Below, piece after piece: positions 15,429 to 64,000 of a stretch of 64,000 nucleotides of DNA (positions within the stretch are counted from its first letter, which is position 1; the number at the start of each line of letters is the position of its first letter). The stretch is from an uncultured Candidatus Saccharibacteria bacterium (lineage in GTDB: Bacteria > Patescibacteriota > Minisyncoccia > Phycocordibacterales > CALRHW01), in assembly GCA_964390845.1 (NCBI GenBank), contig CAYMIL010000001.1:178448-242447 (forward strand). The letters are read 5' to 3'. The position numbers were made by a program, and so were the translations under genes. The notes under the pieces are model-generated. The model saw only the letters and a program-made list of their open reading frames with translations. It was not told the DNA's origin and did no database searches.

Positions 15429-15459
15429 TTGACTTTTCATTAAAATATGATATTATTAT
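15429..15459 (+). promoter_or_regulatory. Putative sigma70 promoter plus strong Shine-Dalgarno (AGGAGG, 6 nt before the ATG) for GC-rich cassette A
   Basis: TTGACT (15429-15434) followed by an AT-rich spacer and TATTAT-like -10. AGGAGG at 15508-15513. Confidence 0.5.
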
Positions 15460-15519
15460 ATTACTACCTTGAGGTGATCCTCTCGGTATGTTCTTTTACT
15501 TCATTCTAGGAGGTGGTCC

Positions 15520-16506
15520 ATGACCACGCAACAGATTGCTGGCGCCGTGCGCGTCAAGACGATCGTGATTCAGCACGCTCCCCGGCTCGACAGCCTTGGA
15601 GCCCTCTTCCTCATCCAGCGCACGCGCGCTGGTGAGAAGGCGTTCCCTGGTTGCAAGGATGCCACTATCGAGTTCTGGGGAACCGGAACTGCCAGTGGTG
15701 GCAAGAAGCGCTGGCAGGAGAACCTCAAGGAGGGTGTTCTCATGCTCGGCGTCGGCGGAAGTCCGTTTGACGAGCATCCGAGCGCCGAGTTTGGCGACCG
15801 GAAGAAGGAGCAGAAGTCCACGATGAAGCTTGTGGCGGAACACCTTCATCTGGACAAGGATCCGCTCTTCAAGCGCTTGGTGGACAACGTCACCAAGAAC
15901 GACCTCGAGGGCGCCCAAGGACCTCTGGACCTGAGCAACATCGTGAAAGCGATGCACAGGTCTGGTGGCAACAACCCTGAGAACGTCATCGGGTTTGCAT
16001 TCGAGGCGTTTGACGCCCTGCTCGGCGAGCAGCATCAGTTTCTGCTCGCCTGCAAGGAGGTTGAGTCGGCGGCGTGGCGCAGGACAATCACCTGCGGAAA
16101 TCGGAAGCTCGACATCGAGCTCATCTGCTCAGACAACACCCTCGTCGCCAGAGCAGCAAGGCACCTCAACAACCGCCTTGCGGTCCTGATTCAGGTGCGC
16201 GCGAGTGGGAGAACTCAGATTCTCACCAACGCCAAGTGCGGTCTCTGCATGAGCAAGGTCGCCTCGGCACTGCGTCGCGCCGAACTCACCAAGATGGGGA
16301 TGCCCTCGTCTGAGATCGAGAAGATCGGCGAGCGCATGAGCGCTCCAGGGCAGCTCAAGGAGATTCCGACCTGGTGTTATCAGATGCCAGGAGAGAACCT
16401 CCTGAACGGCTCCGAGACCGCTCGAGACGTCGAGCCGACCCACCTCAAGGTGGAAGAAGTCTTCGAGATCATCTGCGCGAACATCATGTTCAAGCAGAAG
16501 GATTGA
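15520..16506 (+). CDS. GC-rich cassette A: MYG1/UPF0160-family metal-dependent hydrolase-like protein (328 aa)
   Basis: QHAPRLDSLGALFLIQR and LGVGGSPFDEH resemble the MYG1 signature blocks (THNGTFHCDEALACALL / VDVGGEYD..HRYDHH). GC content and codon usage are clearly higher than in the flanking genes. Confidence 0.55.
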   Translation: MTTQQIAGAVRVKTIVIQHAPRLDSLGALFLIQRTRAGEKAFPGCKDATIEFWGTGTASGGKKRWQENLKEGVLMLGVGGSPFDEHPSAEFGDRKKEQKSTMKLVAEHLHLDKDPLFKRLVDNVTKNDLEGAQGPLDLSNIVKAMHRSGGNNPENVIGFAFEAFDALLGEQHQFLLACKEVESAAWRRTITCGNRKLDIELICSDNTLVARAARHLNNRLAVLIQVRASGRTQILTNAKCGLCMSKVASALRRAELTKMGMPSSEIEKIGERMSAPGQLKEIPTWCYQMPGENLLNGSETARDVEPTHLKVEEVFEIICANIMFKQKD

Positions 16507-16533
16507 GAAGGTCACTCCAACAGAATGAAGAAC

Positions 16534-16562
16534 GGCCCCCGTATGTATGGGGGCCTTTCTTT
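16534..16562 (+). terminator. Intrinsic terminator of cassette A
   Basis: GGCCCCCgtatgtatGGGGGCC followed by tttcttttt. It abuts the rnc stop codon on the opposite strand. Confidence 0.8.
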
Positions 16563-17255
16563 TTACCAACCTTTCTTTTGAAGTGCTTTGCGAGCCGCCT
16601 CTTGTTCGGCGTCTTGCTTTGAATCACCCTCGCCAGACGCAACGAGCTCTTTACCAAGATACACACCGACAGTAAATCGTTTGTCGTGGTCGGGGCCAGT
16701 TTCTTTTGTTGTTTTATACGACGGCGTAACACCCTCTACTTCTTGTGCTTTTTCTTGAAACAAACTTTTTGAGTCAATCCATGAGCCCTTTGAGATGATG
16801 TCATCTGCAAGTGGAGTAAAGTTTTTATATATAAACGCACGAGCAGTCTCGTATCCTTGATCGCGGTACATCGCTCCGATAATAGCCTCGAGCGTGTTTG
16901 CCAAAATATATTGGCGAGCACGACCCACGTCCTTTGTCTCTCCTTTTGAAAGAAGCAAGAAGTCGTTGACCGACAGCGCGCTTGCAACTTGTGCGCACGT
17001 CGTTGCATTTACAAGCGCCGAGCGAATACTTGTCATGTGACCTTCACTTTTGTCAGGGTATGTTTCGTACAAATAATCTGTAATCACAAGCTCAAGCACC
17101 GCATCTCCAAGAAACTCAAGGCGTTCGTTGTGCTCAAGACCAGAATCTTTGTTTTCATTAATATATGAACGATGAACAAACGCTTGCTTCAGCAAACTTT
17201 TATCACGAAATACAACACCGGATGTTGCTTCAAATTGTGAGAAATCAATAGACAT
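16563..17255 (-). CDS. rnc: Ribonuclease III
   Basis: RNase III signature ERLEFLGDAVLEL plus a C-terminal dsRBD. Confidence 0.93.
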   Translation of the reverse strand: MSIDFSQFEATSGVVFRDKSLLKQAFVHRSYINENKDSGLEHNERLEFLGDAVLELVITDYLYETYPDKSEGHMTSIRSALVNATTCAQVASALSVNDFLLLSKGETKDVGRARQYILANTLEAIIGAMYRDQGYETARAFIYKNFTPLADDIISKGSWIDSKSLFQEKAQEVEGVTPSYKTTKETGPDHDKRFTVGVYLGKELVASGEGDSKQDAEQEAARKALQKKGW

Positions 17256-17257
17256 AC

Positions 17258-18172
17258 TTATGAGCGAACCTTTTCTGTTGATCCAAGCAATGCGTTGATT
17301 GCCTTGGTTACGATTGGCAGAATATCATTATAAAAATTGAGGTCAAGAATATCAGCGAGCTTAAACCATCGCACATCGTCGAGGCCACCACTTTCTTTGA
17401 GAGTAATATCTTGGAACGGGGATTCGGCGAGATAATAATTTACTTCTTTTTTAATTTTTCCTTTTTCTGGATCAAAGGCAATGTACCCATTGCTACCGAG
17501 ATTTTGCCCCACGGTAACATCAAGCCCAAGCTCTTCTTTAATAACCCGAGCAACACCCGGAACATCTTCTTCTGTTTCCTCAAGATGACCCTTTGAAAGC
17601 GTCCAGTGTCCAAAGACATCGTGCACAAGCGCGAGGTATACGTCTTCCCCTTGTCGCGCATATACTACCGCGCCGGCAAGCCTCTCCTTTGGAGCTTGAT
17701 CATCTGGAATATCTGGATGGCGCTTTCGCTTTGATGTTTCCTCTTTTCCGGGCTCACCCATTTCTTTGTAGACTGCGCCAAGTACGCCGTTTACAAACTT
17801 ACCGCTCGTCTCGCCACCAAATGTTTTTGCAAGCTCAATCGCCTCATTGATAGCCACCTTTGGAGGAACTTCTTTTCTATCAGCAAACAACAGCTCATAG
17901 AGCCCGATGCGCAAAATATTTCGGTCAACAATAGATATTTTTTCTATAGGCCAGTCTGGAGCCGCTTTTTCAATAATGGTATCGAGGTCCCGTTGCTTTG
18001 CGAGCACATTCTTCATGAGCGATTCCATAAACGAAAAATCGCCCATACCAGGAGCGAATTCCGCAACATTGCGAGCAAATACCTCCATAGCATCAGCTGA
18101 GCTCTTTTTGTTGAAATCCCACTCAAAGAGCGACTGCATGACTATTGATCTGGATAAGTGCCTGTTTGCCAT
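17258..18172 (-). CDS. nusB: NusB antitermination factor fused to a C-terminal Nudix hydrolase domain
   Basis: The N-terminal ~140 aa are NusB-like (MANRHLSRSIVMQSLFEWDF...). The C-terminus carries a Nudix-box-like GHLEETEEDVPGVARVIKEELGL. Confidence 0.8.
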   Translation of the reverse strand: MANRHLSRSIVMQSLFEWDFNKKSSADAMEVFARNVAEFAPGMGDFSFMESLMKNVLAKQRDLDTIIEKAAPDWPIEKISIVDRNILRIGLYELLFADRKEVPPKVAINEAIELAKTFGGETSGKFVNGVLGAVYKEMGEPGKEETSKRKRHPDIPDDQAPKERLAGAVVYARQGEDVYLALVHDVFGHWTLSKGHLEETEEDVPGVARVIKEELGLDVTVGQNLGSNGYIAFDPEKGKIKKEVNYYLAESPFQDITLKESGGLDDVRWFKLADILDLNFYNDILPIVTKAINALLGSTEKVRS

Positions 18173-18222
18173 TGTCGTATATTGTATGTTGAGAACGTAC
18201 TACCCTACCCCACACTCACCAC

Positions 18223-18438
18223 TTACTTACTTGCTGTCTTCTTTTTGCTTTTCTTAGTTGCTTTCGCGACTGTATCAACTACAGTCTTGCCTTTGTATGT
18301 GCCACATTTTGCACACATTCGATGACTCATGCGAGGCGCACCGCACTGAGAGCACTTTGAAAGCGCGCCCATCTTGATTGCATGATGAGATCGGCGGTTT
18401 CCCGTATGGGATCGTGTGTGACGCATTCGTACTACCAT
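18223..18438 (-). CDS. rpmF: 50S ribosomal protein L32
   Basis: 71 aa, MVVRMRHTRSHTGNRRSHHA...CSQCG...CAKCG, with zinc-ribbon cysteines. The upstream extension of the ORF in the track is a GC-rich read-through artefact. Confidence 0.88.
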   Translation of the reverse strand: MVVRMRHTRSHTGNRRSHHAIKMGALSKCSQCGAPRMSHRMCAKCGTYKGKTVVDTVAKATKKSKKKTASK

Positions 18439-18485
18439 ATACGCAGGATTATATACAATTATGGAAAAAAGGCAACTTTTTACTA

Positions 18486-18522
18486 CAAAAAAATCCGCCG
18501 GACACGCTACAGCGCGCCCGGC
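18486..18522 (-). terminator. Intrinsic terminator of cassette B (minus strand)
   Basis: GCCGG-N16-CCGGC hairpin followed on the minus strand by ATTTTTTTG. Confidence 0.6.
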
Positions 18523-18541
18523 AGAAGGAGAGATTGACTCT

Positions 18542-19174
18542 CTACTTGAAGGTCTTGAGGGTCTTGGGGCAAAACCGCTTCCACTCCTCTCGACGTGAGT
18601 TGGCGAGAGGAAACGCCGACTGAACCTCGCGGGTGCCAGCAAACGAAAGCTTCTCGTCGGAGTGCCCGCACGCGACGATGATGCGCCCCTCTTTCGACAT
18701 GGACACATCAGCGAACGAACCGTCGACAGACACCGATCCGATGCACAGCGTAGTCGTGTCTTGGGTATCCAAGGAACGCCTAGGCAACTTGAAGTGCTTG
18801 GCATCCATGGCGACAACGCCGTACAGCAGAAGCGCCTCAAGCAGAGTGCACCCGCACACCTGCTGTTCGTTGAGCTCTCGCGCGCTCACGGGACAAATGT
18901 CTGGCCCAGGACTGCGCTTAAACGAAACCCTGTACGGACCATCACGCTCGGGGTGGCGGTGGTGCTCCATGTGCTGGTCGAAGCCAGCAAAGCACCACAC
19001 GGGCGCCATGCCGAGCGTTCGCAGACCCAGGTGCACCAGCTCCGAGCTGACACCTGGGCACACGTAGACATTCCACTGATCTTCTTCGTCTTCGATGAAC
19101 AGGTTGGGGACAAACATCACGCCCATTGCTTGGTACAACTTCTGCCACAGGCACAAGTAATGACCGGGCAACAT
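18542..19174 (-). CDS. GC-rich cassette B: hypothetical protein with His/Asp-rich motifs; possible metal-dependent hydrolase
   Basis: A coherent 211-228 aa ORF in a ~60% GC segment. A GGAGGTGA Shine-Dalgarno sits before the internal ATG (MLPGHY...). Motifs HMEHHRHPERDG and VACGHSDE. Confidence 0.5.
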   Translation of the reverse strand: MLPGHYLCLWQKLYQAMGVMFVPNLFIEDEEDQWNVYVCPGVSSELVHLGLRTLGMAPVWCFAGFDQHMEHHRHPERDGPYRVSFKRSPGPDICPVSARELNEQQVCGCTLLEALLLYGVVAMDAKHFKLPRRSLDTQDTTTLCIGSVSVDGSFADVSMSKEGRIIVACGHSDEKLSFAGTREVQSAFPLANSRREEWKRFCPKTLKTFK

Positions 19175-19272
19175 TATCACCTCCATCCATAGGGTGGCCC
19201 TAGCGGGCGGAATGGTTGTCTGCGACACGCGTCACAGTTCCAGATAAATTCTGCCACAAAAAGAAAAAACAA

Positions 19273-19878
19273 TCAAATAATGCGTTTGATGAAACTTCGT
19301 CGATGTATGTTGCAAGGGCCATGTCGCCTAATCTGTTGAATATGAGACGCGGTACCGTATCCTTTATGGGCATCAAAACCAAACAACGGATACTTGATTG
19401 CCAGACGCTCCATATATGTATCCCGATGTACCTTTGCAAGAATAGAAGCGAGGCCAATAACAGGCTCTTGTTCGTCGCCACGAATAATTGTCTTTTGCCG
19501 AAGAAAGGATGCTGGTGCACGCAAACCACCATCAAGCAAGACCACACATTCATCTGGTGCAATATTAAGTTTTCGGAGTATAGTACGTAGCGAACGTCCC
19601 ATTGCGTGTGCAATAGCCCTATTGATACCGATACGATCAATCACCGAAGGGCTCACAGAAGAAACTGCATACGCGCACGTCTGCTGTGCACGCGCAAGTC
19701 CCTTGAGTTTATTTTTCCAAACACGACGCTTTTGTGCAGAAAGCTGTTTTGAATCACGAATACCCTCAAAAAAGGAAGGGTTGATGTCTCGAGATACGCA
19801 GACAGCGCCCACAGTAACAGGGCCAGCAAGTGGCCCCCTTCCCACCTCATCAATTCCAATAATGTAGCGGTAGCTCAT
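19273..19878 (-). CDS. rnhB: Ribonuclease HII
   Basis: IIGIDEVGRGPLAGPV... RNase HII N-terminal catalytic motif (DEDD). Confidence 0.92.
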   Translation of the reverse strand: MSYRYIIGIDEVGRGPLAGPVTVGAVCVSRDINPSFFEGIRDSKQLSAQKRRVWKNKLKGLARAQQTCAYAVSSVSPSVIDRIGINRAIAHAMGRSLRTILRKLNIAPDECVVLLDGGLRAPASFLRQKTIIRGDEQEPVIGLASILAKVHRDTYMERLAIKYPLFGFDAHKGYGTASHIQQIRRHGPCNIHRRSFIKRII

Positions 19879-19913
19879 GGCTCTTTGCTATAATTTTATC
19901 ACACCCCATTTCT

Positions 19914-23130: not shown

Positions 23131-23170
23131 AAAAAAGAGAAGCCCCGCGCGACGGCTGTCGCGCGGGGCT
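23131..23170 (-). terminator. Intrinsic terminator of cassette C; also sits 3' of dnaE
   Basis: GCCCCGCGCGACggctGTCGCGCGGGGC, with a T-run on the minus strand. Confidence 0.8.
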
Positions 23171-23178: not shown

Positions 23179-23925
23179 TTACCTGAAGTACTTGTGCCAA
23201 GGCTCATCAGGGACCAGTCCCATTTCAATAAGAGTATGACAGCTCCGGTGAAAGTGAGTGCCGTCTCTGATGGAGTACAAATGAATCCACCCCTTCTTGT
23301 TCGAGTCCTTCTCCTCTATGACCTCCTGTTGAATCCTTTTGAGCTGCTGGGCACGTATGCGCAGGAAGACAGACGCCGCCACACGGAGCTCTTCGGCGTT
23401 CACGCCCTGAAGAACAGCTGACAAGTCGCGACCCGGAATCATCTCAATCGAACAGAACTCTCGGAAGAGCCTGTCGAAGAGGCTGCGCGCCCAAGACTTC
23501 TTTGCGATGATGGCCTCAAGCTCCGTTATTCTCGCTCGCGCACGAATGATGCGACGAGGAAAATAGATGAAGACCGCAGAAACCAAGACCACCAAGGAGA
23601 CCAGTGCTATCACCCCGCAGAACTGATTGATGCGCGTAGAACCAAACCCAAGGAAGTAGCAGAATCCGCACGTGGTAAAGACCACGACGCTGGTAGCGAA
23701 CACGCAGAAGGAGTACCACATGTACAGATGGATACCCGCCATGCGCATGCTCTTCTCCAGCTCCAGATCCGACCACGCGGACTTCCGGAGAGTTTCAACC
23801 TCGATGCCGTGTTTCTTGGCATACAAACCAAGGAGGGGCGAACCCTCAATGACCGAGTTTTCAATCTGAATGTGCATGGAACCATTCCTTTCAGAGAACT
23901 CAATGGGGATTTCGGGTCCCGTCAC
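23179..23925 (-). CDS. GC-rich cassette C: hypothetical membrane protein (soluble N-domain, 2 TM helices, C-terminal cytoplasmic domain), GTG start
   Basis: 248 aa in a high-GC segment. TTGACA-N17-TATTGT promoter in the upstream spacer. Hydrophobic stretches YMWYSFCVFATSVVVF and FCGVIALVSLVVLVSAVFIYF. Confidence 0.55.
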   Translation of the reverse strand: MTGPEIPIEFSERNGSMHIQIENSVIEGSPLLGLYAKKHGIEVETLRKSAWSDLELEKSMRMAGIHLYMWYSFCVFATSVVVFTTCGFCYFLGFGSTRINQFCGVIALVSLVVLVSAVFIYFPRRIIRARARITELEAIIAKKSWARSLFDRLFREFCSIEMIPGRDLSAVLQGVNAEELRVAASVFLRIRAQQLKRIQQEVIEEKDSNKKGWIHLYSIRDGTHFHRSCHTLIEMGLVPDEPWHKYFR

Positions 23926-24020
23926 ACCATCCTGTTTCGACAGGAGGCCGACACTTCATTGATTCCATGCAAACAATATCACTAAAATACTGGTATGTCA
24001 ACTATCACGCACAACCTCTT

Positions 24021-35190: not shown

Positions 35191-35264
35191 GGCGTAGTGG
35201 CGAAGTTGGTTAACGCGGCGGTCTGCAAAACCGCTATGCGCCGGTTCAATTCCGGCCTACGCCT
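35191..35264 (+). tRNA. tRNA-Cys (GCA)
   Basis: Cloverleaf folded by hand: acceptor GGCGTAG/CTACGCC, anticodon loop cuGCAaa, T-loop TTCAATT. Confidence 0.85.
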
Positions 35265-35306
35265 CAAAGATTCCCTCAAGAAAAAAACGTGATACAGTAT
35301 CACTAA

Positions 35307-35391
35307 GCCCGGGTGATGAAATTGGTAGACATAGTCGACTTAAAATCGGCGGCCGAAAGGCATGCGGGTTCGATTCCCGCCCTGGGCACCA
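35307..35391 (+). tRNA. tRNA-Leu (TAA), type II, with encoded CCA
   Basis: Acceptor GCCCGGG/CCTGGGC, anticodon loop cuUAAaa, long variable arm and T-loop TTCGATT. Confidence 0.85.
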
Positions 35392-35404
35392 CAATACTCC
35401 ATAT

Positions 35405-35432
35405 TTGACATTTCTTTAAAATGTGCTAATAT
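35405..35432 (+). promoter_or_regulatory. Near-consensus sigma70 promoter for cassette D (TTGACA-N16-TAATAT)
   Basis: tTTGACAtttctttaaaatgtgcTAATAT. A GAAAGGGA Shine-Dalgarno lies 6 nt before the ATG at 35491. Confidence 0.55.
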
Positions 35433-35490
35433 GGGTTCTAGTCACATACCGAATAAACGACTGACGCTCCTTTCACGAAAGGGACTACCG

Positions 35491-35898
35491 ATGAGTATCT
35501 CACGTGTGCAAGAACTGTTCAGACGGCTTTTGAAGCGGTCTGAACCAGAGTGGCCGCAGCTCGTCGCAGAGAAGGACGAGATGAAACGCCAACTCGACGA
35601 GTACACACGGAAGTACCGCAACAGCCAACTTCCGTACCGCGATCGAGCGCACGCCGCAGAGGCATACGTGCGCGAAGCTCCGAAGCTCGTCCGCCACGCC
35701 GCTACTATGGCGACTGCAGGCGGACGCACCCAGAGTCTCGAGGACTACGATCCTCGCCTCGTCGCCATCATGACAGCTGAACTTGGCTACATCGCCAAGC
35801 ATTTCAAGCGGTACCCCGGGTGCTATGAGGGTGTCGTGGTGATCATCCGGTCGCCACACTTCCCCGAGCGTCTCCAGGGACAGGTCCTGTTCAACTGA
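35491..35898 (+). CDS. GC-rich cassette D: hypothetical soluble protein (136 aa) between tRNA-Leu and tRNA-Lys
   Basis: High GC and GC3 codons. The longer ORF in the track overlaps tRNA-Leu, so the start was set at the first ATG after the promoter. Confidence 0.55.
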   Translation: MSISRVQELFRRLLKRSEPEWPQLVAEKDEMKRQLDEYTRKYRNSQLPYRDRAHAAEAYVREAPKLVRHAATMATAGGRTQSLEDYDPRLVAIMTAELGYIAKHFKRYPGCYEGVVVIIRSPHFPERLQGQVLFN

Positions 35899-35925
35899 AT
35901 CCGTGATGAAGCTATGCATCACACA

Positions 35926-35960
35926 CCCCCGACCGCACCACGTGCGCGGTCGGGGTTTTC
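35926..35960 (+). terminator. Intrinsic terminator of cassette D
   Basis: CCCCCGACCGCaccacgtGCGCGGTCGGGG followed by tttt. Confidence 0.75.
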
Positions 35961-36003
35961 CATTACTATGTTTTATGTTATAAAGATATCTGTCGTTCCT
36001 TTT

Positions 36004-36076
36004 CCGCCTATAGCTCAGTTGGTAGAGCAACCGCCTCTTAAGCGGTGGGTCCCAGGTTCGAATCCTGGTGGGCGGA
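36004..36076 (+). tRNA. tRNA-Lys (CTT)
   Basis: Acceptor CCGCCTA/TGGGCGG, D-arm GCTCAGTTGGTAGAGC, anticodon loop cuCTTaa, T-loop TTCGAAT. Confidence 0.85.
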
Positions 36077-36103
36077 CTCGGTGTCGTGCGCACACATACA
36101 TAC

Positions 36104-36185
36104 GGGCGAGTGGCGTAATTGGTAGCCGCGCTAGTCTTAGGAACTAGTGGAGTAATCCATGGGAGTTCGAGTCTCCCCTCGCCCA
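36104..36185 (+). tRNA. tRNA-Leu (TAG), type II
   Basis: Acceptor GGGCGAG/CTCGCCC, anticodon loop cuTAGga, long variable arm and T-loop TTCGAGT. Confidence 0.85.
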
Positions 36186-36189
36186 CAAC

Positions 36190-36217
36190 TTGACTTTTCT
36201 GTTTTTTTGTGTATAAT
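36190..36217 (+). promoter_or_regulatory. Strong sigma70 promoter for cassette E1, immediately 3' of tRNA-Leu (TTGACT-N16-TATAAT)
   Basis: TTGACTtttctgtttttttgtgTATAAT. Confidence 0.6.
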
Positions 36218-36245
36218 ATTTTTTAGGCTCACAGCTGTGGCCGTA

Positions 36246-37562
36246 ATGATTACGGCTCGGTGTAGAGTCGTTCTTTGGCATCATCGCAACAAGAGAAAGG
36301 TAGCGTGTCTCGTGAAGAAGAAAATCAACTGGATGTTTTGGATCAACTTGTACCTCCTGAGCGGCTGCGTAGCGGTGCTCGGGTGGTACGCCAACCCTCT
36401 GCTGGGAGTGGTGATCATCGTCATTTCCCTCTTCCACCCCGCCATGTACTTGGCGCTGGGCTGGACGGTCCGCAAGATCGCTTCGTGGGAGAAGAAGAAG
36501 TTCTTCATCTTTCCCACTGAGGGACAGATCATTCCCATTGTGAGAGGTGTCTCCAGCGGAACCGACAAAGACCGTGGTGACGCAAGAAGTGACACCAGCA
36601 AAACTGGTGGCGCCCGTAGTGGCGTGTTTGACCACTTCGTGATCTCTATCCGGGGGCACGTCATGGTCGGCAACAAGCTGGTAAAGCTTCCAGACAACGA
36701 GGAAGCACCGCGTAGCTTTTGGAATCTGCACTTCGGTGTGGAATGGATTGGCTTGTGGCAGACGGTCCAGACGTACCACTTCAAGTGGAACACCCTGAAG
36801 TGGAACGCTGAAACCGAAGAGGCCGAGATTTTTCCTCGGGATGAAATTGTGTCTTCGCTGTTTTGGAGGGCGCAATACGCATTCCTGATTGTTGAGGTGG
36901 AGGACAAAAACAACCTCCGCCTCACTCTCAAGGTTCTCGTGAACCTGAGGACGGTCAATCCGTACCAGACGCTGTACGGAACATCTGGCAAGCCAGGCGA
37001 CTGGATTCAAGCGGTCGCCGCCGCGATTACCGCGGTCATCCGAGACTTCGTGGGCAAGGAAAGCTACGAGAGTCTGATCGGGATGCAGACCGAAGGCGAT
37101 AACTCGCCCTTCATCAGGGCAATCAAGACCCTCAACACGAAGTGCCTCAATGGCAACGATAGCCTCGAGGACTTGTACGGCCAGGTCATCGACAGCGCCA
37201 ACATGATCTCGGTCGAGCTTTCGGACGAGGACATGCGTGAGATCACGCAGGAGAAGTACCGGGCCGAGCAGAAGAAGCTCGCGGCAGAGCAGGACGCTGT
37301 ACGGACCATTACCCTCGGCACCGCTGAGGCAACGGTTCGACAGAAGAACCTCGAGGCAGAAGCCGCTGGCAAGAAGGCCATGCTTAAAGCCGAAGCTGCT
37401 GGCACGAAGGCTGTACTTGAGGCAACTGCGGCAGGCTACGAGAAGATCGGAACCGCTGCAGATGGCAAGGGTGCCAGCATGTTCGCTGCTTCGAAACTGA
37501 GTGAAACCAAGGGCACCCTTGTCTTGGACAAGGACACCATTGGTCTCAACCTGAACCAGTAA
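36246..37562 (+). CDS. GC-rich cassette E1: SPFH/band-7 (flotillin-like) membrane protein
   Basis: N-terminal TM region; SPFH core; C-terminal AEQKKLAAEQ...EAEAAGKKAMLKAEAAGTKAVLEATAAG flotillin-type EA repeats. The start is 36246, with an alternative ATG at 36333. The 5' part of the ORF in the track overlaps the tRNA. Confidence 0.7.
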   Translation: MITARCRVVLWHHRNKRKVACLVKKKINWMFWINLYLLSGCVAVLGWYANPLLGVVIIVISLFHPAMYLALGWTVRKIASWEKKKFFIFPTEGQIIPIVRGVSSGTDKDRGDARSDTSKTGGARSGVFDHFVISIRGHVMVGNKLVKLPDNEEAPRSFWNLHFGVEWIGLWQTVQTYHFKWNTLKWNAETEEAEIFPRDEIVSSLFWRAQYAFLIVEVEDKNNLRLTLKVLVNLRTVNPYQTLYGTSGKPGDWIQAVAAAITAVIRDFVGKESYESLIGMQTEGDNSPFIRAIKTLNTKCLNGNDSLEDLYGQVIDSANMISVELSDEDMREITQEKYRAEQKKLAAEQDAVRTITLGTAEATVRQKNLEAEAAGKKAMLKAEAAGTKAVLEATAAGYEKIGTAADGKGASMFAASKLSETKGTLVLDKDTIGLNLNQ

Positions 37563-37597
37563 CCCTTCGACCTCTCTCTGCGATGGTGCGCCCACAA

Positions 37598-37625
37598 GCC
37601 AGTATTCCACGGACGGAATACTGGC
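37598..37625 (+). terminator. Hairpin terminator of E1 abutting the E2 promoter
   Basis: GCCAGTATTCCacggacGGAATACTGGC followed by TTGACTTTT. Confidence 0.6.
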
Positions 37626-37654
37626 TTGACTTTTATATAAAAACGTGATAGTAT
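37626..37654 (+). promoter_or_regulatory. sigma70 promoter for E2 (TTGACT-N17-TAGTAT); an AAGGAG Shine-Dalgarno lies 6 nt before the GTG start
   Basis: TTGACTtttatataaaaacgtgaTAGTAT. AAGGAG at 37715-37720. Confidence 0.55.
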
Positions 37655-37726
37655 TATACAGGTAGGCTTGCTCTTTCACATATCACTCACACCCAATCCC
37701 CCTTCCGGGGGCACAAGGAGAACACT

Positions 37727-38683
37727 GTGTTCACGTCCATTCACAAGAACGTCTCTCGTCTGTACCGTAAGGCACTTGTCGCCAAGAAGCGCTTGAAGAA
37801 GCGCCGCATCAAGAACCACGGCGGACTCAAGAAGAAGTTCGGCGCGGCATTCGGGTGGATGCGCGACAAGGCATCCGCAACGACCAAGAAGGTCGCACCC
37901 GCGATGGCGTGGGCTCGCGAAAAGTCTGCGCGCCTGTACGCACGGGCAATCGCTGCGGGCAGTGGCACCAAGAAGCGCGTCCCCGCCATGTCGGCATGGA
38001 TGCGCAACAAGGGGTCGCGAGTCCTCGCATGGTCAGGCAAGCACAAGCAGTACGCTGTGCCTGCGCTCCTCGCGGGAGCGCTGGTCGGCATGATCATGTT
38101 CCTCCCCACCAAGAGCCTTCCGTCGTTTGGAGGCACAGGGGCGATCGTCTCGTTCCTGATCTGGACCGGTTGCATCATCGCAGGCCTTGGCATGATCACC
38201 CTCGTGGTGGTCTTGCAGATCAAGAAGAAGTTCCGGGTAGGAACGTTTCTCGCGCTGATCGCATTTTCTGGATCGGTAGCAATGATCGTGTGGCTCATTT
38301 GCCGCGGACCAGCAACGGCAACCGCAAACCGCAACCTCGTGGAGATTGCTTACGACAAAGAGATCGTGGGCACTCTTCACAAGGGAGAGTGGACTCCGGT
38401 ATTCGTCACCCCGACGAACTCTGGAAAAACCGTTGCGGACGTGGGTATGGAAAGCGAGTCGCCGGAAATGGTGATCCGCTACACCGCCCGCACCAAGCAA
38501 TGGGGCTCTGTTCAGAAGGAGCTTCCTCCCTTCCGATGCGAACGGGGTCGAGGGGTTTCCTGGCAGGAGTTCAGCTCCTACTACAGGAACCATTTCGGCC
38601 TCGATGTCATCGAGGTTTGTGCACTGCGAATTGGGTGCACGACCGATGAGCCCCTGACCTATGTGGTCAAGGCACACCGGTGA
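37727..38683 (+). CDS. GC-rich cassette E2: 3-TM membrane protein with N-terminal basic W-M-R-x-K amphipathic repeats and a C-terminal soluble domain; possible NfeD-like partner of the SPFH protein
   Basis: GTG start with a strong Shine-Dalgarno. Repeats AAFGWMRDKAS / AMAWAREKS / AMSAWMRNKGS. Three hydrophobic helices and a ~140-aa C-terminal domain. Confidence 0.6.
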   Translation: MFTSIHKNVSRLYRKALVAKKRLKKRRIKNHGGLKKKFGAAFGWMRDKASATTKKVAPAMAWAREKSARLYARAIAAGSGTKKRVPAMSAWMRNKGSRVLAWSGKHKQYAVPALLAGALVGMIMFLPTKSLPSFGGTGAIVSFLIWTGCIIAGLGMITLVVVLQIKKKFRVGTFLALIAFSGSVAMIVWLICRGPATATANRNLVEIAYDKEIVGTLHKGEWTPVFVTPTNSGKTVADVGMESESPEMVIRYTARTKQWGSVQKELPPFRCERGRGVSWQEFSSYYRNHFGLDVIEVCALRIGCTTDEPLTYVVKAHR

Positions 38684-38701: not shown

Positions 38702-38730
38702 GCGGCGTGGGACTTGTCCCACGCCGCTTT
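38702..38730 (+). terminator. Intrinsic terminator of E2
   Basis: GCGGCGTGGGActtgTCCCACGCCGC followed by tttcgttttc. Confidence 0.75.
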
Positions 38731-39064: not shown

Positions 39065-39076
39065 AGAAAACGACTA

Positions 39077-39448: not shown

Positions 39449-39536
39449 ATACGTTTCTAACTTTTTAAATACTAATATGGTACCCAATAATAATACTACA
39501 CATACACCGCTTTAGCCCAGATGGCTGTGAATAACC

Positions 39537-39851: not shown

Positions 39852-39854
39852 ATA

Positions 39855-40750: not shown

Positions 40751-40767
40751 ACAATGATTATATAATC

Positions 40768-41181: not shown

Positions 41182-41188
41182 AGAGTAG

Positions 41189-47911: not shown

Positions 47912-47940
47912 AAAAACGCTGGTCGCAAGACCAGCGTTTT
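47912..47940. terminator. Bidirectional terminator between rpsA (+) and cassette F (-)
   Basis: aaaaaaAACGCTGGTCgcaaGACCAGCGTTtt. Confidence 0.8.
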
Positions 47941-47946: not shown

Positions 47947-48507
47947 TCACGCGTGCGCGTGAGTACGGGCGTATTTACGCACCACTTCTTCAGTCACACC
48001 CGTCTTCTCTGCAATCACAGGCACATCATCGTCCCACGAAGGACTCATGCCACGATGCCTGCTCAGAAACTGCCCGATTCTGTTGAAATCGGCCTCTTGA
48101 CTGAACCTCTTTGCCTGCGCAGCCGTCGGCGGCTTACGAATGTGTGGCGCATTCTTGACCCTGATACTGTAGCTGCGCACACCAGAGATGTTCGACGTGA
48201 GAACAATTTCAAGCTTGGGAAAGGGCTTGATGATTTCACCGAGCATACCACTGATGCGTTGCAGTTCCTCCTGATTGAGACGAACGTATCGATCTGGCTC
48301 AATTTCCATCTTTCGACGCTTGTCGGTATGCGGAATCCAGACATCAATCACGCTCCAGCCAAAACCATAGCGGGAGATCACGTTCATTCCGATAGTCCCC
48401 CTGTAGCGCTCTGCGACCTCCTCAATCTTCTGTTGAAGCTGCCGATTGCAAGCCTTAAGAACAGGTCTTACTTTCTCCCAATCAACATAGACCTTTTGAA
48501 ACGTCAT
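47947..48507 (-). CDS. Cassette F (moderately GC-rich): hypothetical soluble protein (186 aa)
   Basis: A strong Shine-Dalgarno (AAGGAGGAAG) lies 3-6 nt before the ATG at 48507. A TTGACA-containing promoter lies upstream. No recognisable family. Confidence 0.55.
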   Translation of the reverse strand: MTFQKVYVDWEKVRPVLKACNRQLQQKIEEVAERYRGTIGMNVISRYGFGWSVIDVWIPHTDKRRKMEIEPDRYVRLNQEELQRISGMLGEIIKPFPKLEIVLTSNISGVRSYSIRVKNAPHIRKPPTAAQAKRFSQEADFNRIGQFLSRHRGMSPSWDDDVPVIAEKTGVTEEVVRKYARTHAHA

Positions 48508-48978
48508 GTGCTTCCTCCTTTTGTAAATAGACGTGATGTTCGAAACGTGCCTTAGGCACACATGTGCAATGTACGACGATTTTTATAATGGCATTATAAA
48601 AATAATTTGTCAAATCTCCATCTCGCCCACCCCAACAAAAGCCCCGCGAGGGGCTTTTGTGTTTGGAGAGATAGCGATATACTTTCACATAGAACGACTT
48701 CCGATGGGTCATGTGATTGATGTGGGAATTGGATACCCCCACTGGTAGCCGCGAGATATGCGGGATACTACGAGTCGGATTGAGCACTCCTGCGTGTGCT
48801 TCGGGATGGACCCCCGATGGCAAGGACCACCCAGTGTCTCAGGTCACATGTACAAAAAGGCATCCCGTGTGGTTGGGTGCATACCCATCGCAAGAACAAG
48901 CTGATAGGGTTGAAGCGAAAAACCACCCTGCAGTACAACCTGCCGCGACCGGAATGCGATAACCGGGACAATAGTACT

Positions 48979-49021
48979 GAGCGCGCCGTAGTCCGAGACG
49001 GCGCGCTCTTATTTTTTATTT
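48979..49021 (+). terminator. Strong plus-strand intrinsic terminator with no annotated upstream plus-strand gene
   Basis: GAGCGCGCCGTagtccgagACGGCGCGCTC followed by ttattttttatttt. Confidence 0.75.
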
Positions 49022-60296: not shown

Positions 60297-60315
60297 ACTG
60301 TGCTAGAATACGCCC

Positions 60316-61491: not shown

Positions 61492-61493
61492 AC

Positions 61494-61522: not shown

Positions 61523-61541
61523 TACTGCGCCAAGCAAGTGT

Positions 61542-62225: not shown

Positions 62226-62334
62226 ATTCATTAACTTATAACCGCTGTTAGCTTGGCTTATTTCTACTTGAATACTGACCATTTGTCAACATCTCGAAAA
62301 AAACGAGTATTTCAACATGTTACAATAACTATGC

Positions 62335-63078
62335 ATGATGAGTCCTTATACAGATTACACACTTCTCCTTACCGTTACTGTCTGCGGCGGCATCCTCCCT
62401 GCCCTGTTTTGGTTGTGGTTTTGGCTTCATGAGGACAACAAATCTCCTGAGCCTCGCGGACTTATTATTCGAGCGTTTCTCGCGGGGGCAGTGGCGGTAC
62501 CACTTGTGTTGCCGTTTCAATTTATTGTTTCAAAATACGTGGCAGGCTATTCTGTACTCGTATTTTTACTCTGGGCATGCATCGAGGAGCTCTTTAAGTT
62601 TGGCGCAACCTTCTTTACTATCTTTCACCGCAGAGAAATGGACGAGCCTATTGATGTAGTGATCTACCTTATCACCGCGGCACTTGGCTTTGTCGCGCTT
62701 GAAAACGTATTATTCCTCTCCTCACCGATTCTTCAGGAGTTTTCAACGCCATTTCAGGTCATCGGCACGCGCGCAGTCGGCACAATGATCGACACCGTCA
62801 TCACTGGCAACTTGCGTTTTATGGGGGCGAGTCTGCTACACGTTATCGCCTCTGCAACAGTGGGCATTATGATTGCGTTGGTCTTTTATCGAGGTGTGCG
62901 TGCCCGTTTTAAAGCAACATTACTTGGATTATCCCTCGCAACAGTATTGCATGCTGTCTTCAACTTCTTTATAATATACAAGAACGGAGAGAATACACTG
63001 ATTGTGTTCTCAATCCTGTGGCTGATGATTGCAGTCTTGATGTTATTTTTCGAAAAAATAAAAACTTTAGCACATTAA
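62335..63078 (+). CDS. PrsW-family intramembrane metalloprotease
   Basis: Multi-TM protein with an EELFKFGA (EExxK) motif, FxxxH and HAVFNF motifs. Confidence 0.75.
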   Translation: MMSPYTDYTLLLTVTVCGGILPALFWLWFWLHEDNKSPEPRGLIIRAFLAGAVAVPLVLPFQFIVSKYVAGYSVLVFLLWACIEELFKFGATFFTIFHRREMDEPIDVVIYLITAALGFVALENVLFLSSPILQEFSTPFQVIGTRAVGTMIDTVITGNLRFMGASLLHVIASATVGIMIALVFYRGVRARFKATLLGLSLATVLHAVFNFFIIYKNGENTLIVFSILWLMIAVLMLFFEKIKTLAH

Positions 63079-63086
63079 AAAGCAGT

Positions 63087-63557
63087 ATGGCACAAAAACG
63101 ATCATTCTTTGAGAGACTCACCGGCGCCGTAAGGGTTGTCGACGATTTAGACATGGACGAACAGCGTGACGACCTCGCTGAGCGAACCATCTCTACACGA
63201 GAAATGATTGACGAAGACACAGGCGAAGGCGAACTCACTGTTGATGTCTACCAAACATCAAGCGACATTATCATCAAGACGATGGTTGCGGGTGTACGAC
63301 CAGAAGATCTCGATATCGCAATCACTCGAGACACTGTCACGATTAAAGGAAAGCGCGAATCTGAGCGCCTTGTCCGCGACGAAGACTACTTCCACCGCGA
63401 ATTATACTGGGGTAGCTTCTCACGCACCATCATGTTGCCTCAAGAAGTAGAGATCGACGAGGCGGAGGCAGTAGAAAAACACGGACTCCTCATCATCAAA
63501 CTCCCGAAGCTCGATAAATCCAAACAAGCAAAACTCCGCGTTAAAAATAACGGATAA
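63087..63557 (+). CDS. Hsp20/alpha-crystallin small heat-shock protein
   Basis: Alpha-crystallin domain (LTVDVYQTSSDIIIKTMVAGVRPEDLDIAI...GLLIIKLPK). The start is at the internal ATG with an A-rich leader. Confidence 0.85.
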   Translation: MAQKRSFFERLTGAVRVVDDLDMDEQRDDLAERTISTREMIDEDTGEGELTVDVYQTSSDIIIKTMVAGVRPEDLDIAITRDTVTIKGKRESERLVRDEDYFHRELYWGSFSRTIMLPQEVEIDEAEAVEKHGLLIIKLPKLDKSKQAKLRVKNNG

Positions 63558-63566
63558 AAAAAGAGA

Positions 63567-63600
63567 GGGCCGCGCAGCAATACGCTGCGCGGCCCTTTGT
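63567..63600. terminator. Bidirectional terminator between hsp20 (+) and GC-rich cassette G (-)
   Basis: aaaaaaagagaGGGCCGCGCAGCaataCGCTGCGCGGCCCtttgt. Confidence 0.8.
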
Positions 63601-63620
63601 CTGTGTGTACCTGTACCAGT

Positions 63621-64000
63621 TCAGCTCACCCACCAGTACGGCACCATCTTCTTCTTCGGATGGTCGTACGTATGGATTCTGATCCAAAAATCCACCTTCT
63701 CGCGCGCAGAAGAGATCAGCTCGTTGCGCAGGTCTTCGCGCGCAATGACAAACTGGTCGAAACTCGACAAACTCCTGTAGAGCGACCCGTAGCGGACAAG
63801 CATGTTGCGAACACTGACGAATTCTCCCGCCTCCTCGTAGCGGTCGAGCGCCTCCTTGAGGAAACGCATCACCGCTTGGCAATCAAGCCGAGCCTCCATC
63901 GTCTTCGCGGGGTTGTAGGACGACCCCAAAAAGAGCAACATCGCCCCAACCCGAAGCTCAAGTTCACGGCAGACGTGCGGAACGATGCGCAGATGCACGG
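63621..64000 (-). CDS. GC-rich cassette G: C-terminal part of a hypothetical protein whose gene continues past the right edge of the window
   Basis: Open frame in a ~60% GC segment reaching the window boundary; no family recognised. Confidence 0.45.
   Translation of the reverse strand, partial: VHLRIVPHVCRELELRVGAMLLFLGSSYNPAKTMEARLDCQAVMRFLKEALDRYEEAGEFVSVRNMLVRYGSLYRSLSSFDQFVIAREDLRNELISSAREKVDFWIRIHTYDHPKKKMVPYWWVS

Follow-up and report, generated by a model that had tools for sequence, protein, structure and literature searches.

GC3-rich single-gene cassettes in variable slots between the housekeeping genes of a Patescibacteria genome

Introduction

Phage "morons" are independent promoter-ORF-terminator units of deviant composition, and codon-distinct gene subsets are known from codon-biased translational regulons ("modification-tunable transcripts") and from the GC3-rich gene classes of grasses. 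Flexible genomic islands are usually shifted toward AT. Replacement flexible genomic islands are exchanged by homologous recombination (Lopez-Perez, Martin-Cuadrado and Rodriguez-Valera 2014, PMC4033161), and horizontally acquired genes and genomic islands have been described in Patescibacteria (mSystems 2025, PMC12455944).

Here we analyzed a 64,000-nt stretch of DNA (the window; GC 47.4%) with eight GC-rich segments, c1–c8, which are real, protein-coding genes accessory to the genome of an ultra-small Patescibacteria bacterium (CPR, Paceibacterota-like). As in the replacement islands of PMC4033161, these cassettes occupy fixed sites between core genes, with a content that differs or is extremely diverged among strains and relatives; their boundaries are sharp, with substitutions clustered at the edge of a replaced tract (window versus strain L025), and membrane proteins are among the products (c3, c5, and c6). 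In contrast to the multi-gene surface-glycan clusters of the replacement islands, they are single genes of 0.4–1.3 kb, eight of which lie within 49 kb, and, unlike flexible islands, they are shifted toward GC, at third codon positions only. They share with the genes of PMC12455944 the phylum, an outlying composition, mostly hypothetical products, and exchange mainly within Patescibacteria, but they have no identifiable donor. Like the codon-biased regulons and the grass gene classes, they form a subset of genes in one genome with distinct synonymous codon usage; no GC3-rich class of this kind in Patescibacteria was found in the literature searched.

Results and Discussion

Composition of the cassettes

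The GC3 values of the eight ORFs (0.58–0.78) lie 4–9.6 standard deviations above those of the 34 backbone genes of the window, which served as the reference set (mean 0.438, sd 0.035, range 0.37–0.50), and no further GC3 outlier gene was found in the window (Table 1). The shift is synonymous almost throughout: taken over the cassettes, GC3 is 0.719 versus ~0.44 in the backbone, with GC1 at 0.568 versus 0.580 and GC2 at 0.416 versus 0.385. AAG makes up 0.89 of the Lys codons in the cassettes versus 0.42 in the backbone, and ACA 0.05–0.06 of the Thr codons versus 0.48.

GC3 already reaches 0.4–0.75 over codons 1–20 and is 0.6–0.95 over the following 20, whereas the pooled DNA 5′ of the cassettes (promoter/UTR) has a GC of 0.38, compared with 0.414 for the other intergenic DNA of the window. 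The GC of the cassette promoters and UTRs is 0.33–0.43, that of the 5′ UTRs being far lower than GC3, although these regions are themselves selected to be AT-rich and are therefore imperfect neutral controls for the coding-only pattern. The long antisense ORFs in the cassettes are real and lie in the codon-aligned antisense frame, an expected by-product of the near absence of TTA, CTA, and TCA codons (0–2 per cassette gene). Thus, the picture drawn in the earlier note, of discrete one-gene cassettes that stand out in composition and codon usage from a backbone of lower GC, with composition breaks at the ORF ends, AT-rich and host-like regulatory DNA, and many overlapping antisense ORFs, was borne out by computation.

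Anatomy and integrity of the cassettes

Each cassette is a self-contained single-gene unit consisting of a promoter, a Shine-Dalgarno site, an ORF, and an intrinsic terminator, within AT-rich non-coding flanks. A sigma-70-like promoter of its own was detected for six of the seven complete ORFs, c2 being the only complete cassette for which none was detected, and a hairpin/T-run terminator was seen at all eight. The hairpin separating c7 from the S1 gene is probably a bidirectional terminator. For c2, the true start is probably 19186, although the ORF reaches 19228.

Table 1. Cassettes, their putative signals, and the tRNA genes bordering c4–c6.
Feature	Coordinates	Strand	GC3	z	Remarks
c1 promoter	15429..15456	+			TTGACT-16-TATTAT, extended TG; 10/12 matches; also read directly
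c1	15520..16506	+	0.775	9.6	328 aa, DHH/DHHA1-fold phosphoesterase; between SMC (-) and RNase III (-), opposite strand to both
c1 terminator	16534..16555	+			Hairpin then T-run
c2 terminator	18494..18525	-			Hairpin then T-run
c2	18542..19186 (ORF to 19228)	-	0.742	8.7	214 aa, Cys/Trp-rich orphan; RNase HII / L32 slot
c3 terminator	23141..23170	-			Hairpin; within zone of 81% identity to strain L025
c3	23179..23925	-	0.679	6.9	248 aa, two predicted membrane helices; directly past DnaE stop codon
c3 promoter	23973..24001	-			TTGACA-17-TATTGT, extended TG
tRNA-Cys(GCA), tRNA-Leu(TAA)	35191..35391	+			Border of c4–c6 hotspot
c4 promoter	35405..35432	+			TTGACA-16-TAATAT, extended TG
c4	35491..35898	+	0.699	7.4	135 aa (also by gene callers), orphan; flanked by two tRNA pairs
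tRNA-Lys(CTT), tRNA-Leu(TAG)	36004..36186	+
c5 promoter	36190..36217	+			TTGACT-16-TATAAT; 11/12 matches
c5	36246..37562	+	0.722	8.1	438 aa, membrane protein; weak SPFH/Band_7 signal, long C-terminal helix
c5 terminator	37595..37628	+			Hairpin
c6 promoter	37626..37654	+			TTGACT-17-TAGTAT, extended TG
c6	37727..38683	+	0.740	8.6	318 aa, membrane protein; strict orphan
c6 terminator	38702..38727	+			Hairpin
Hairpin, S1 gene / c7	47913..47940	.			T-runs on both sides
c7	47947..48507	-	0.578	4.0	186 aa, orphan; between S1 gene and Pth; weakest outlier
c7 promoter	48585..48613	-			TTGACA-17-CATTAT, extended TG
c8 terminator	~63575-63610				Hairpin, downstream of ORF
c8	63621..64000	-	0.754	9.0	3′ part of ORF, cut by window end

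The earlier note had raised an assembly chimera and engineered or synthetic inserts as possible sources of the mosaic. The sole point in favor of an artefact, whether an assembly or binning chimera, contamination, or a synthetic construct, is the sharpness of the composition breaks. However, the junctions are 99.7–100% identical across five independent assemblies (the per-run Logan assemblies of SRR6747781 and SRR6747782, two ENA assemblies, and a 290-kb NCBI contig), and each ORF is joined without a seam to promoter and terminator sequences of the host type. The pattern is also present in dozens of unrelated Patescibacteria assemblies produced by many different studies, and the lineage itself is a wild, metagenomic one. 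An artefact is thus effectively refuted and has a negligible probability.

As units with a promoter and a terminator each, the cassettes resemble phage morons, which are likewise single genes placed between conserved genes and unlike their neighbors in composition; in addition, c4–c6 lie in a tRNA cluster adjoining T4SS-pilin genes. Both features would fit cargo of mobile elements, that is, morons, integron-type gene cassettes, or integrase-inserted islands at tRNA genes. In contrast to morons, however, the cassettes have cellular housekeeping neighbors and no prophage context, the annotated neighbors include no integrase, transposase, or phage gene, and there were no PHROG or PADLOC matches. 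No relative of c1 was found in IMG/VR or among GenBank phages, and no viral homologue of c3, c6, or c7 in IMG/VR. With integron gene cassettes they share the format of small single-ORF units, but neither attC-like sites nor flanking direct or inverted repeats were found, there is no IntI integrase, common orientation, or array, and most complete units have their own promoter; the cassette-style acquisition suggested in the earlier note is therefore not supported in an integron-like form. Single cassettes are also dispersed across 49 kb. Taken together, an origin as mobile-element cargo appears very unlikely.

Variable slots and replacement at the c3 slot

The gene order ThrRS-DnaE-RNaseHII-L32-NusB-RNaseIII-SMC is kept in ~45 loci, with gaps of 17 bp to 4.9 kb, and the gaps that hold cassettes in the window are empty or differently filled in the ~45 relatives, mostly with genes that are not GC-rich. 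In the co-occurring strain L025, the backbone from DnaE to c1 matches the window with zero mismatches over ~7.4 kb. The c3 slot of L025, in contrast, is occupied by a homologous allele that shares only 21% identity with c3 and cannot be aligned at the nucleotide level, although it has the same architecture, a GC3 of 0.61, and a C-terminal PW.KYF motif. Divergence begins at the DnaE stop codon, and the final 240 nt of DnaE contain 5 mismatches, compared with 0 in the preceding 7.4 kb. This sequence comparison indicates that c3 was replaced by homologous recombination, as the cassette replacement process suggested in the earlier note would have it.

Since the c3 slot demonstrably recombines, GC-biased gene conversion may be considered, by which the slots would be recombination hotspots and repeated allele conversion would raise the GC of the exchanged tract. 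The cassette genes are both fast-evolving and GC-enriched, and recombining genes have higher GC3 in many bacteria (PMC4450053). Such conversion is, however, expected to raise the non-coding GC of the tract too (PMC4450053), in conflict with the AT-rich cassette promoters and UTRs, and two alleles that differ as much as those of c3 cannot form heteroduplex DNA within the cassette. In our judgement, the GC3 offset of +0.2 to +0.35 also looks too large for biased conversion. We therefore regard biased conversion as an improbable cause of the GC-richness.

The c1 family and the source of the GC-richness

A homologous family is traceable for one of the eight cassettes, c1, and for none of them was a homologue found beyond Patescibacteria. 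The earlier note had called the c1 product MYG1-like. The resemblance extends no further than the DHH superfamily fold; c1 had no sequence-level match in Pfam, NCBIfam, or PDB sequences. Compared with the DHH/DHHA1 phosphoesterases NrnA, GdpP, RecJ, and family II pyrophosphatase, c1 carries an invariant acidic/His motif, GGSPFDEH, with DEH in place of DHH, and its family is found in Patescibacteria only. MYG1/UPF0160 is a member of the same superfamily as these enzymes.

In all 16 members of the main c1 clade, whose hosts range from 36% to 54% GC across the family, GC3 exceeds that of the host, by 0.21 on average and by at least 0.086, as estimated against 3–21 neighboring ORFs per locus. The two covary (slope 0.63, r = 0.72, p = 0.002). 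Identity at four-fold sites is near the random expectation in seven of the eight pairs compared, so that synonymous sites in these pairs have approached or reached saturation. Conversely, in four distant relatives forming one clade, and in a tandem paralogue in L003 (9023-9958), GC3 is host-like or lower, which indicates that the excess is not obligatory for the fold. The 21 c1-family loci either have a host GC3 below that of the gene or lie in the AT-shifted clade. The earlier note had taken a shared composition and context in sister genomes as evidence against an insertion, and this was found in part: the GC3 excess of c1 is also present in its relatives and is thus a lineage-wide family trait rather than the scar of a recent insertion, but c1 is the only cassette with homologues for such a comparison.

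The main rival to codon selection, and a possible though less favored one, is that the cassettes are recent transfers from GC-rich donors, most plausibly Patescibacteria of 55–60% GC or their unsampled mobile elements, that have not yet drifted toward the host, with GC-rich lineages as the main carriers of the allele pool. GC-rich Paceibacterota of the same gene order exist (L066–L068, 59% GC, GC3 ~0.68–0.73), and the codon usage of the cassettes correlates with that of L066 at r = 0.88, versus 0.46 with their own backbone. The slots are variable, and the c3 swap shows that imports take place over population time scales. The transfer detected in Patescibacteria mostly stays inside the phylum (PMC12455944), and the L003 paralogue could be an older resident.

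Nevertheless, no c1 homologue was found in a uniformly GC-rich context, and c2, c5, and c6 have no homologue at all. The non-coding flanks in relatives are mostly 0.29–0.43 GC (two are 0.48–0.50), compared with 0.53–0.56 for the intergenic DNA of GC-rich Paceibacterota. The GC1 of the cassettes and the share of Gly, Ala, Arg, and Pro in their proteins (0.265) are host-like, whereas L066 has values of 0.636 and 0.311. Two-fold codons in the cassettes are biased at least as strongly as four-fold sites (NNY-C 0.72, NNR-G 0.79, GC4 0.68), and L066 shows the reverse (NNY-C 0.66, NNR-G 0.61, GC4 0.78). Transfer would also have to account for the covariation with host GC3, and it requires at least a dozen recent imports, each independent and all in one direction, including five into one site: in five genomes a c1-family copy sits on the opposite strand between rpsS and rplB. 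Unlike the genes of PMC12455944, the c1 family still shows the excess in all main-clade hosts although its synonymous divergence is close to or at saturation, which a simple transfer-then-drift model does not predict. A coding-only GC-richness that persists in distant relatives is thus not easily explained by ordinary gene transfer, and we infer that it is not a record of a foreign donor genome's base composition.

Because the GC3 excess is confined to the translated region and persists in diverged c1 hosts, we propose a codon-selected regime. The whole reading, to which we give about an even chance, is that the cassettes are single-gene "replacement islets" of a Patescibacteria accessory pool, in which codon selection probably maintains the coding-only GC3 excess. 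Each cassette fills a slot between conserved housekeeping genes that in relatives is empty or holds unrelated lineage-specific genes. The occupants would change very fast and be exchangeable among near-identical strains via homologous recombination in the conserved flanks, as a single-gene version of the replacement flexible genomic islands; this movement was seen for c3 and may apply to the other cassettes. The gene class would hold a distinct codon regime, avoiding A- and U-ending codons and preferring AAG, GAG, CAG, and NNC. Since c1 alone has homologues, the family behavior is extended to the seven orphan cassettes by analogy. As for the selective agent, we can only speculate on translation independent of U34 tRNAs, resistance to ribosome-dependent or AU-specific RNases, or fewer spurious AT-rich promoters within the gene.

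Products and neighbors of the other cassettes

For c2, c5, and c6, search sets of 1.8–5.8 billion proteins returned only the cassettes themselves: c2 matched itself alone (P0009) among 5.8e9 proteins, c5 likewise gave a self match only, and an exhaustive HMMER search of c6 against 1.84e9 representative proteins returned c6 alone. Three other assemblies have the same c2 junctions, and relatives have either no gene or unrelated genes in its slot.

For c5, which the earlier note had described as SPFH-like, a Pfam match to Band_7 does exist, but at 20.7 bits it falls under the gathering threshold of 23.6. The antisense strand of c5 has a frame that is open throughout 36144-37679 and is at times mis-called as a gene (L107). 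At the c4–c6 hotspot, the tRNA block is inverted in the relative L001.

Composition and codon usage of the cassettes

The earlier note had described eight GC-rich coding segments with atypical codon usage and overlapping antisense reading frames, and all of these features were reproduced when computed. The third-codon-position GC content (GC3) of every one of the eight cassettes, c1–c8, exceeds that of the 34 host genes of the backbone (0.438 ± 0.035, range 0.37–0.50), with z = 4.0–9.6, in a window of 47.4% GC, and no further GC3 outlier genes were found in the 64 kb. The cassettes have a combined length of 6.0 kb, or 12.4% of 15429–64000. The first and second codon positions are close to those of the backbone (GC1, 0.568 versus 0.580; GC2, 0.416 versus 0.385), whereas GC3 is 0.719 in the cassettes versus 0.440 in the backbone, and the compositional shift is almost purely synonymous.

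Positions, GC3 and remarks for the cassettes and the other loci discussed in the text
Feature	Sequence	Position (strand)	GC3	Remark
c1	window	15520–16506 (+)	0.775	DHH fold
c2	window	18542–19186 (-)	0.742	
c3	window	23179–23925 (-)	0.679	
c4	window	35491–35898 (+)	0.699	
c5	window	36246–37562 (+)	0.722	
c6	window	37727–38683 (+)	0.740	
c7	window	47947–48507 (-)	0.578	
c8	window	63621 to window end (-)	0.754	
NusB gene	window	17258–18172 (-)		NUDIX domain
Four-tRNA block	window	35191–36186		Cys-GCA, Leu-TAA, Lys-CTT, Leu-TAG
Four-tRNA block	L001	7732–8898		inverted
T4SS-pilin/TrbC-like genes	window	38795–41265 (-)		
T4SS-pilin/TrbC-like genes	L001	14232–16602		
Stretch from c7 promoter to Pth	window	48640–49010 (+)		~330 nt, ~50% GC
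Terminator of that stretch	window	48979–49008 (+)		
c1 family, at rpsS/rplB	L003	10001–11035	0.635	tandem paralogue
c1 family, tandem paralogue	L003	9023–9958	0.44	host-like
c1 family, at rpsS/rplB	L004	9860–10798		
c1 family, at rpsS/rplB	L005	9718–10674		
c1 family, at rpsS/rplB	L008	1017–1982		
c1 family, at rpsS/rplB	L016	7992–8957		
GroEL gene	L014	4786–6423 (-)	0.66	Parcubacteria assembly
Antisense calls for c1	L025	7257–8276		128 aa + 179 aa in place of real gene
Antisense call for c5	L107	9344–10795		483 aa in place of real gene

The high GC3 extends over the full length of the cassettes, their initial and final codons included. The third-position A fraction falls from 0.26 in the backbone to 0.10 in the cassettes, and third-position T is depleted too; since both bases are affected, and over the entire ORF, DGR-like adenine mutagenesis was ruled out. 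The AAG share of Lys codons rises from 0.42 to 0.89, the ACA share of Thr codons drops from 0.48 to 0.05–0.06, and the codon usage of the cassettes correlates with that of their own backbone at only r = 0.46. The amino-acid composition of the encoded proteins is host-like, except for raised Cys (1.8% versus 0.6%) and Trp (2.2% versus 0.6%), both approximately 3-fold, and Arg (7.3% versus 5.1% in the backbone proteins).

TTA, CTA, and TCA codons are nearly missing from the cassettes (0–2 per gene), and for this reason the codon-aligned antisense frame, in which the long antisense ORFs lie, stays open. Selection for an overlapping antisense gene was rejected, because a general avoidance of A-ending codons accounts for the open frames. 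Ordinary translational selection for high expression was also rejected, because rpoB, rpoC, S16, S1, IF-2, FtsZ, and the pilins of the window have backbone-level GC3; the ribosomal proteins and EF-Tu of relatives are likewise near their own backbone GC3. The GC3 of a GroEL gene in one Parcubacteria assembly exceeds the locus median of ~0.45–0.48, suggesting that in certain Patescibacteria (CPR) genomes the GC3-rich codon regime may also include some conserved genes with high expression.

Flanking DNA, neighbors, and junctions

Six of the seven complete cassettes possess their own high-scoring sigma-70-type promoter, of the form TTGAC[A/T], 16–17 nt, TAnnAT, with an extended TG in five of the six. 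No promoter was detected for c2, which may be transcribed by readthrough from RNase HII. For five of the eight cassettes, a GC-rich hairpin followed by a T-run is among the strongest terminator-like sites of its region, the hairpins of c4, c7, and c8 being read by eye only. On inspection by eye, c1, c6, and c7 show a clear Shine-Dalgarno motif. The DNA upstream of the cassettes (promoter and UTR) has a GC content of 0.33–0.43 in each case and of 0.38 when pooled over 602 nt, versus 0.414 for the other intergenic DNA of the window, with the UTRs serving as composition controls that are not themselves neutral. The promoters and regulatory DNA are thus AT-rich and host-like, as had been read from the sequence. 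The cassettes sit 0.14–0.34 above their neighbors in GC3 within one AT-leaning genome while their promoters and UTRs are AT-rich, and such a coding-only excess allows influences on coding DNA to be told apart from those on an entire region.

The neighbors of the cassettes are housekeeping genes (SMC, RNase III, NusB, L32, RNase HII, DnaE, ThrRS, ClpB, IF-2, RbfA, tRNAs, GyrA, S1, Pth, TsaD, and HSP20). The cassette junctions are 99.7–100% identical to the window in several independent assemblies, comprising the per-run Logan assemblies SRR6747781 and SRR6747782, ENA ERZ27309394 and ERZ28656156, and a 290,715-bp NCBI contig. This identity over the junctions rules out an assembly chimera or a synthetic insert, both of which the earlier note had entertained. 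A contig of the Logan assembly SRR6747781 (L109) ends at window position 35241 and breaks in tRNA-Cys, at the edge of the c4–c6 hotspot, where the second run assembles through; the break may reflect strain heterogeneity at this hotspot.

The stretch from the c7 promoter to Pth, which ends with a strong plus-strand terminator, contains no convincing ORF and has no Rfam match, and has a predicted fold that does not significantly exceed shuffled sequence in stability (z = -1.5). This stretch may be a small RNA of a new type or a decayed cassette.

Comparison with known mobile units

The cassettes resemble phage morons in having a promoter and a terminator around a single ORF, but differ from them in that they have no prophage context, that no phage homologs were found in PHROGs or, for c1, c3, c6, and c7, among viral sequences, and that their neighbors are housekeeping genes. 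Integron cassettes carry an attC site at the 3' end, which is absent here, where the downstream hairpins are ordinary, mutually unrelated terminators. Integron cassettes are also promoterless and lie in one orientation, in contrast to the mixed orientations and the own promoters seen here. No direct or inverted repeats flanking the cassettes were found, nor any repeats common to them, and no IntI or other integrase was seen among their annotated neighbors. Like tRNA-targeted islands, c4–c6 lie among four tRNA genes, but there is no duplicated tRNA fragment, and the interval from RbfA to the pilin genes contains no integrase. An integron or a tRNA-integrase island was therefore rejected on the absence of repeats and of any recombinase among the annotated neighbors, and integron-like cassette machinery did not survive as an account of the cassettes.

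In the relative L001, whose ClpB is 81% identical to the window copy, the region from the tRNA block to the T4SS pilins likewise contains genes rich in GC3, namely a c1 homolog, a Band_7 gene, and a 402-aa orphan. The four-tRNA block is inverted between the two loci, and c4 lies between two tRNAs of the block in the window only. In both loci, five or six small T4SS-pilin/TrbC-like genes of host-like GC adjoin the GC-rich hotspot.

Cassette proteins

Searches of the cassette proteins against Pfam, NCBIfam, PADLOC, and PHROGs returned nothing but a sub-threshold SPFH/Band_7 match for c5 (PF01145, E = 4.7e-4), which scores 20.7 bits where the gathering threshold is 23.6. No match other than self was found for c2 and c5 among 5.8 billion proteins, or for c6 when 1.84 billion representative proteins were searched exhaustively with HMMER. 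In ~110 Patescibacteria loci, c2–c8 yielded only self matches and one c3 allele, and no paralogy was found within c1–c8. Viral relatives were found neither for c1 (GenBank phages and IMG/VR) nor for c3, c6, and c7 (IMG/VR), and a phage or defense origin was set aside because PADLOC, PHROGs, GenBank phages, and IMG/VR all gave nothing.

The c1 protein has the two-domain DHH + DHHA1 fold, and D84-E85-H86 in the motif GGSPFDEH, together with D128, are invariant and are candidate DHH/metal-binding residues. The c1 product had been called MYG1-like; this holds for the DHH superfamily fold, but no match to the MYG1/UPF0160 family was found, Pfam giving none at E <= 0.01 and neither NCBIfam nor the PDB giving a sequence match. 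The positional analog of c5 in L001 carries PF01145 and is ~25–26% identical to c5, over just 81 aa. An AlphaFold2 single-sequence model of c5 had a pLDDT of 42, too poor to use.

Variable slots and replacement of the c3 allele

The gene order ThrRS-DnaE-RNaseHII-L32-NusB-RNaseIII-SMC is kept in ~45 Paceibacterota-like loci. The RNaseHII/L32, RNaseIII/SMC, DnaE/RNaseHII, and ThrRS/DnaE gaps, conversely, range from 17–50 bp up to 0.5–4.9 kb, with unrelated, lineage-specific occupants. In relatives, these occupants are mostly host-like or lower in GC3, and GC3-rich ones are a minority (L062, L105, L093, L087, L075, L078, and L102). The window NusB carries a NUDIX domain, according to precomputed Pfam matches of an identical gene in L024, and a free-standing gene that looks NUDIX-like by eye, with raised GC3, occupies the RNaseHII/L32 slot in L062, L087, L100, and L102.

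A contig of a co-occurring strain with a near-identical backbone (L025) showed 0 mismatches to the window over 15484–22878 (~7.4 kb). The final 240 nt of DnaE then contain 5 mismatches, and across the terminator the identity drops to 81%. The c3 allele of L025 is unalignable in DNA and 21% identical in protein to the c3 of the window, and retains the architecture and the C-terminal PW.KYF motif, with a GC3 of 0.61. Only one c3 boundary is visible, as the contig stops inside the cassette. For c1, c2, and c4–c7, the same allele was present in the other recovered assemblies, and a swap was seen for c3 alone.

A substitution peak at the edge of a swapped tract is a described footprint of replacement flexible genomic islands, which are exchanged by homologous recombination (PMC4033161). 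The c3 locus exhibits different content at the same position, a substitution peak at the boundary, and a site that is variable in the wider lineage. Judged from the alignment, the c3 difference matches the footprint of such an exchange, in line with the cassette-type replacement that the earlier note had put forward. The exchange mechanism and the layout would be those of replacement flexible genomic islands, with the cassettes shrunk to single genes.

CPR genomes thus harbor hypervariable slots, each for a single gene, among their core genes, and in some lineages such a slot lies within the S10 operon itself. For the genes in these slots, roles in interactions with phages or hosts are candidate functions. 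What is new here is the combination of hypervariable replacement islets with an unexplained, persistent, coding-only GC3 excess. In the literature searched, a limited library that gives weak evidence of absence, no earlier work on a GC3-rich class of genes in the CPR was found.

The c1 family across Patescibacteria

Homologs of c1 were found only in Patescibacteria; a scan of genomes with the single c1 sequence as the query gave no match. GC3 of the c1 family lies above that of its own neighbors in all 16 of 16 main-clade members (mean, +0.21; minimum, +0.086), in host loci of 36% to 54% GC. The family GC3 rises with host GC3 with a slope of 0.63 (r = 0.72, p = 0.002), the host value being an estimate based on a small number of neighboring ORFs at each locus. 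The non-coding flanks in the c1-carrying genomes are mostly at 0.29–0.43 GC, with two at 0.48–0.50. Four distant family members, forming one clade, have host-like or AT-shifted GC3.

In five different Paceibacterota genomes, c1 occupies the rpsS/rplB gap of the S10 ribosomal operon, encoded on the opposite strand, and thereby breaks up an otherwise near-universal ribosomal-protein operon. In the four of these genomes that were compared, the c1 copies are mutually 38–50% identical, whereas S19, L2, and EF-Tu are 74–91% identical. In seven of the eight c1-family pairs compared, 4-fold sites under conserved residues agree about as often as expected at random, indicating that synonymous divergence is near or at saturation.

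One of these genomes (L003) contains tandem c1 paralogs in the same orientation, one with host-like GC3 and the other GC3-rich, which form a natural paired control for any account of the excess. In L004, on the same contig as L010, the c1 homolog has an in-frame TAG at ~9986 in place of an otherwise invariant Trp (TGG to TAG). This gene is either a young pseudogene or yields a shorter protein, called as 265 aa, from a restart further downstream.

Origin of the GC3 excess

The causes of differences in GC content and codon usage among bacteria have long been debated; those considered are mutation bias, biased gene conversion, and selection. Foreign-donor composition, biased gene conversion, and transcription-linked mutation all predict GC-rich non-coding DNA within the affected unit. 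That GC-biased gene conversion raised the GC content of the exchanged tract is quite improbable, since the regions upstream of the cassettes reach just 0.33–0.43 GC and conversion is expected by its proponents to affect intergenic DNA as well (PMC4450053).

That the cassettes are recent imports from unsampled GC-rich donors appears less likely than not, but import stays a serious rival, because transfer within the phylum is common in Patescibacteria (PMC12455944) and seven of the eight cassettes are untraceable. The cassettes are compositionally atypical for their host, and potential donors exist, such as a Paceibacterota genome of 59% GC (L066) whose codon usage correlates with that of the cassettes at r = 0.88. 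No donor lineage emerged, however: c1 homologs occur only in Patescibacteria with GC3 below that of the gene, c2, c5, and c6 match only themselves, and no viral relatives were found for c1, c3, c6, and c7. Intergenic DNA of GC-rich Paceibacterota is at 0.53–0.56 GC, versus 0.38 upstream of the cassettes, and L066 has a GC1 of 0.636 and a Gly, Ala, Arg, and Pro fraction of 0.311, versus 0.568 and 0.265 in the cassettes. Furthermore, 4-fold sites are the most GC-rich in L066 (0.78 versus 0.61–0.66 at 2-fold sites), whereas the 2-fold sites of the cassettes (0.72–0.79) are no less biased than their 4-fold sites (0.68).

The coding-only shift, the bias at 2-fold sites, and the c1-family excess, which persists despite saturation, together favor a force that acts on codons and is tied to translation. 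Such a force would keep the synonymous sites of the cassettes GC-rich. We tentatively propose, at somewhat less than even confidence, that Patescibacteria keep a fast-evolving, strain-variable class of accessory genes synonymously GC-rich against their AT-biased genomes, with few codons ending in A or U, through translational selection. The class could, for example, form a codon-defined regulon that would be translatable while U34 tRNAs or AU-rich mRNAs come under attack or run short. One candidate agent is U34-tRNA independence, in view of the preference for AAG, GAG, and CAG and of a tRNA-Lys(CUU) gene that adjoins c4–c6. Other candidates are protection against ribosome-dependent toxins or RNases with a preference for A-rich or AU-rich targets, and fewer spurious AT-rich promoters in organisms without xenogeneic silencers. 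If selection on codons is the correct reading, the cassettes would offer a naturally occurring case for the direct measurement, within a single genome, of how selection acts on synonymous GC.

Mis-annotation of GC3-rich genes

In two public records of the same genome, antisense ORFs were called in place of c1 and c5, and the c1 product is missing from the records because the gene caller picked the antisense ORFs. These calls indicate that GC3-rich genes of AT-rich CPR genomes are systematically mis-annotated. Gene callers trained on host codon usage misread the GC3-rich cassettes, which is a practical problem: as the antisense strand was taken for c1 and c5, protein databases contain too few genes of this class, or garbled versions of them. 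Another c5 call, of 467 aa, has its start at 36159, inside tRNA-Leu.
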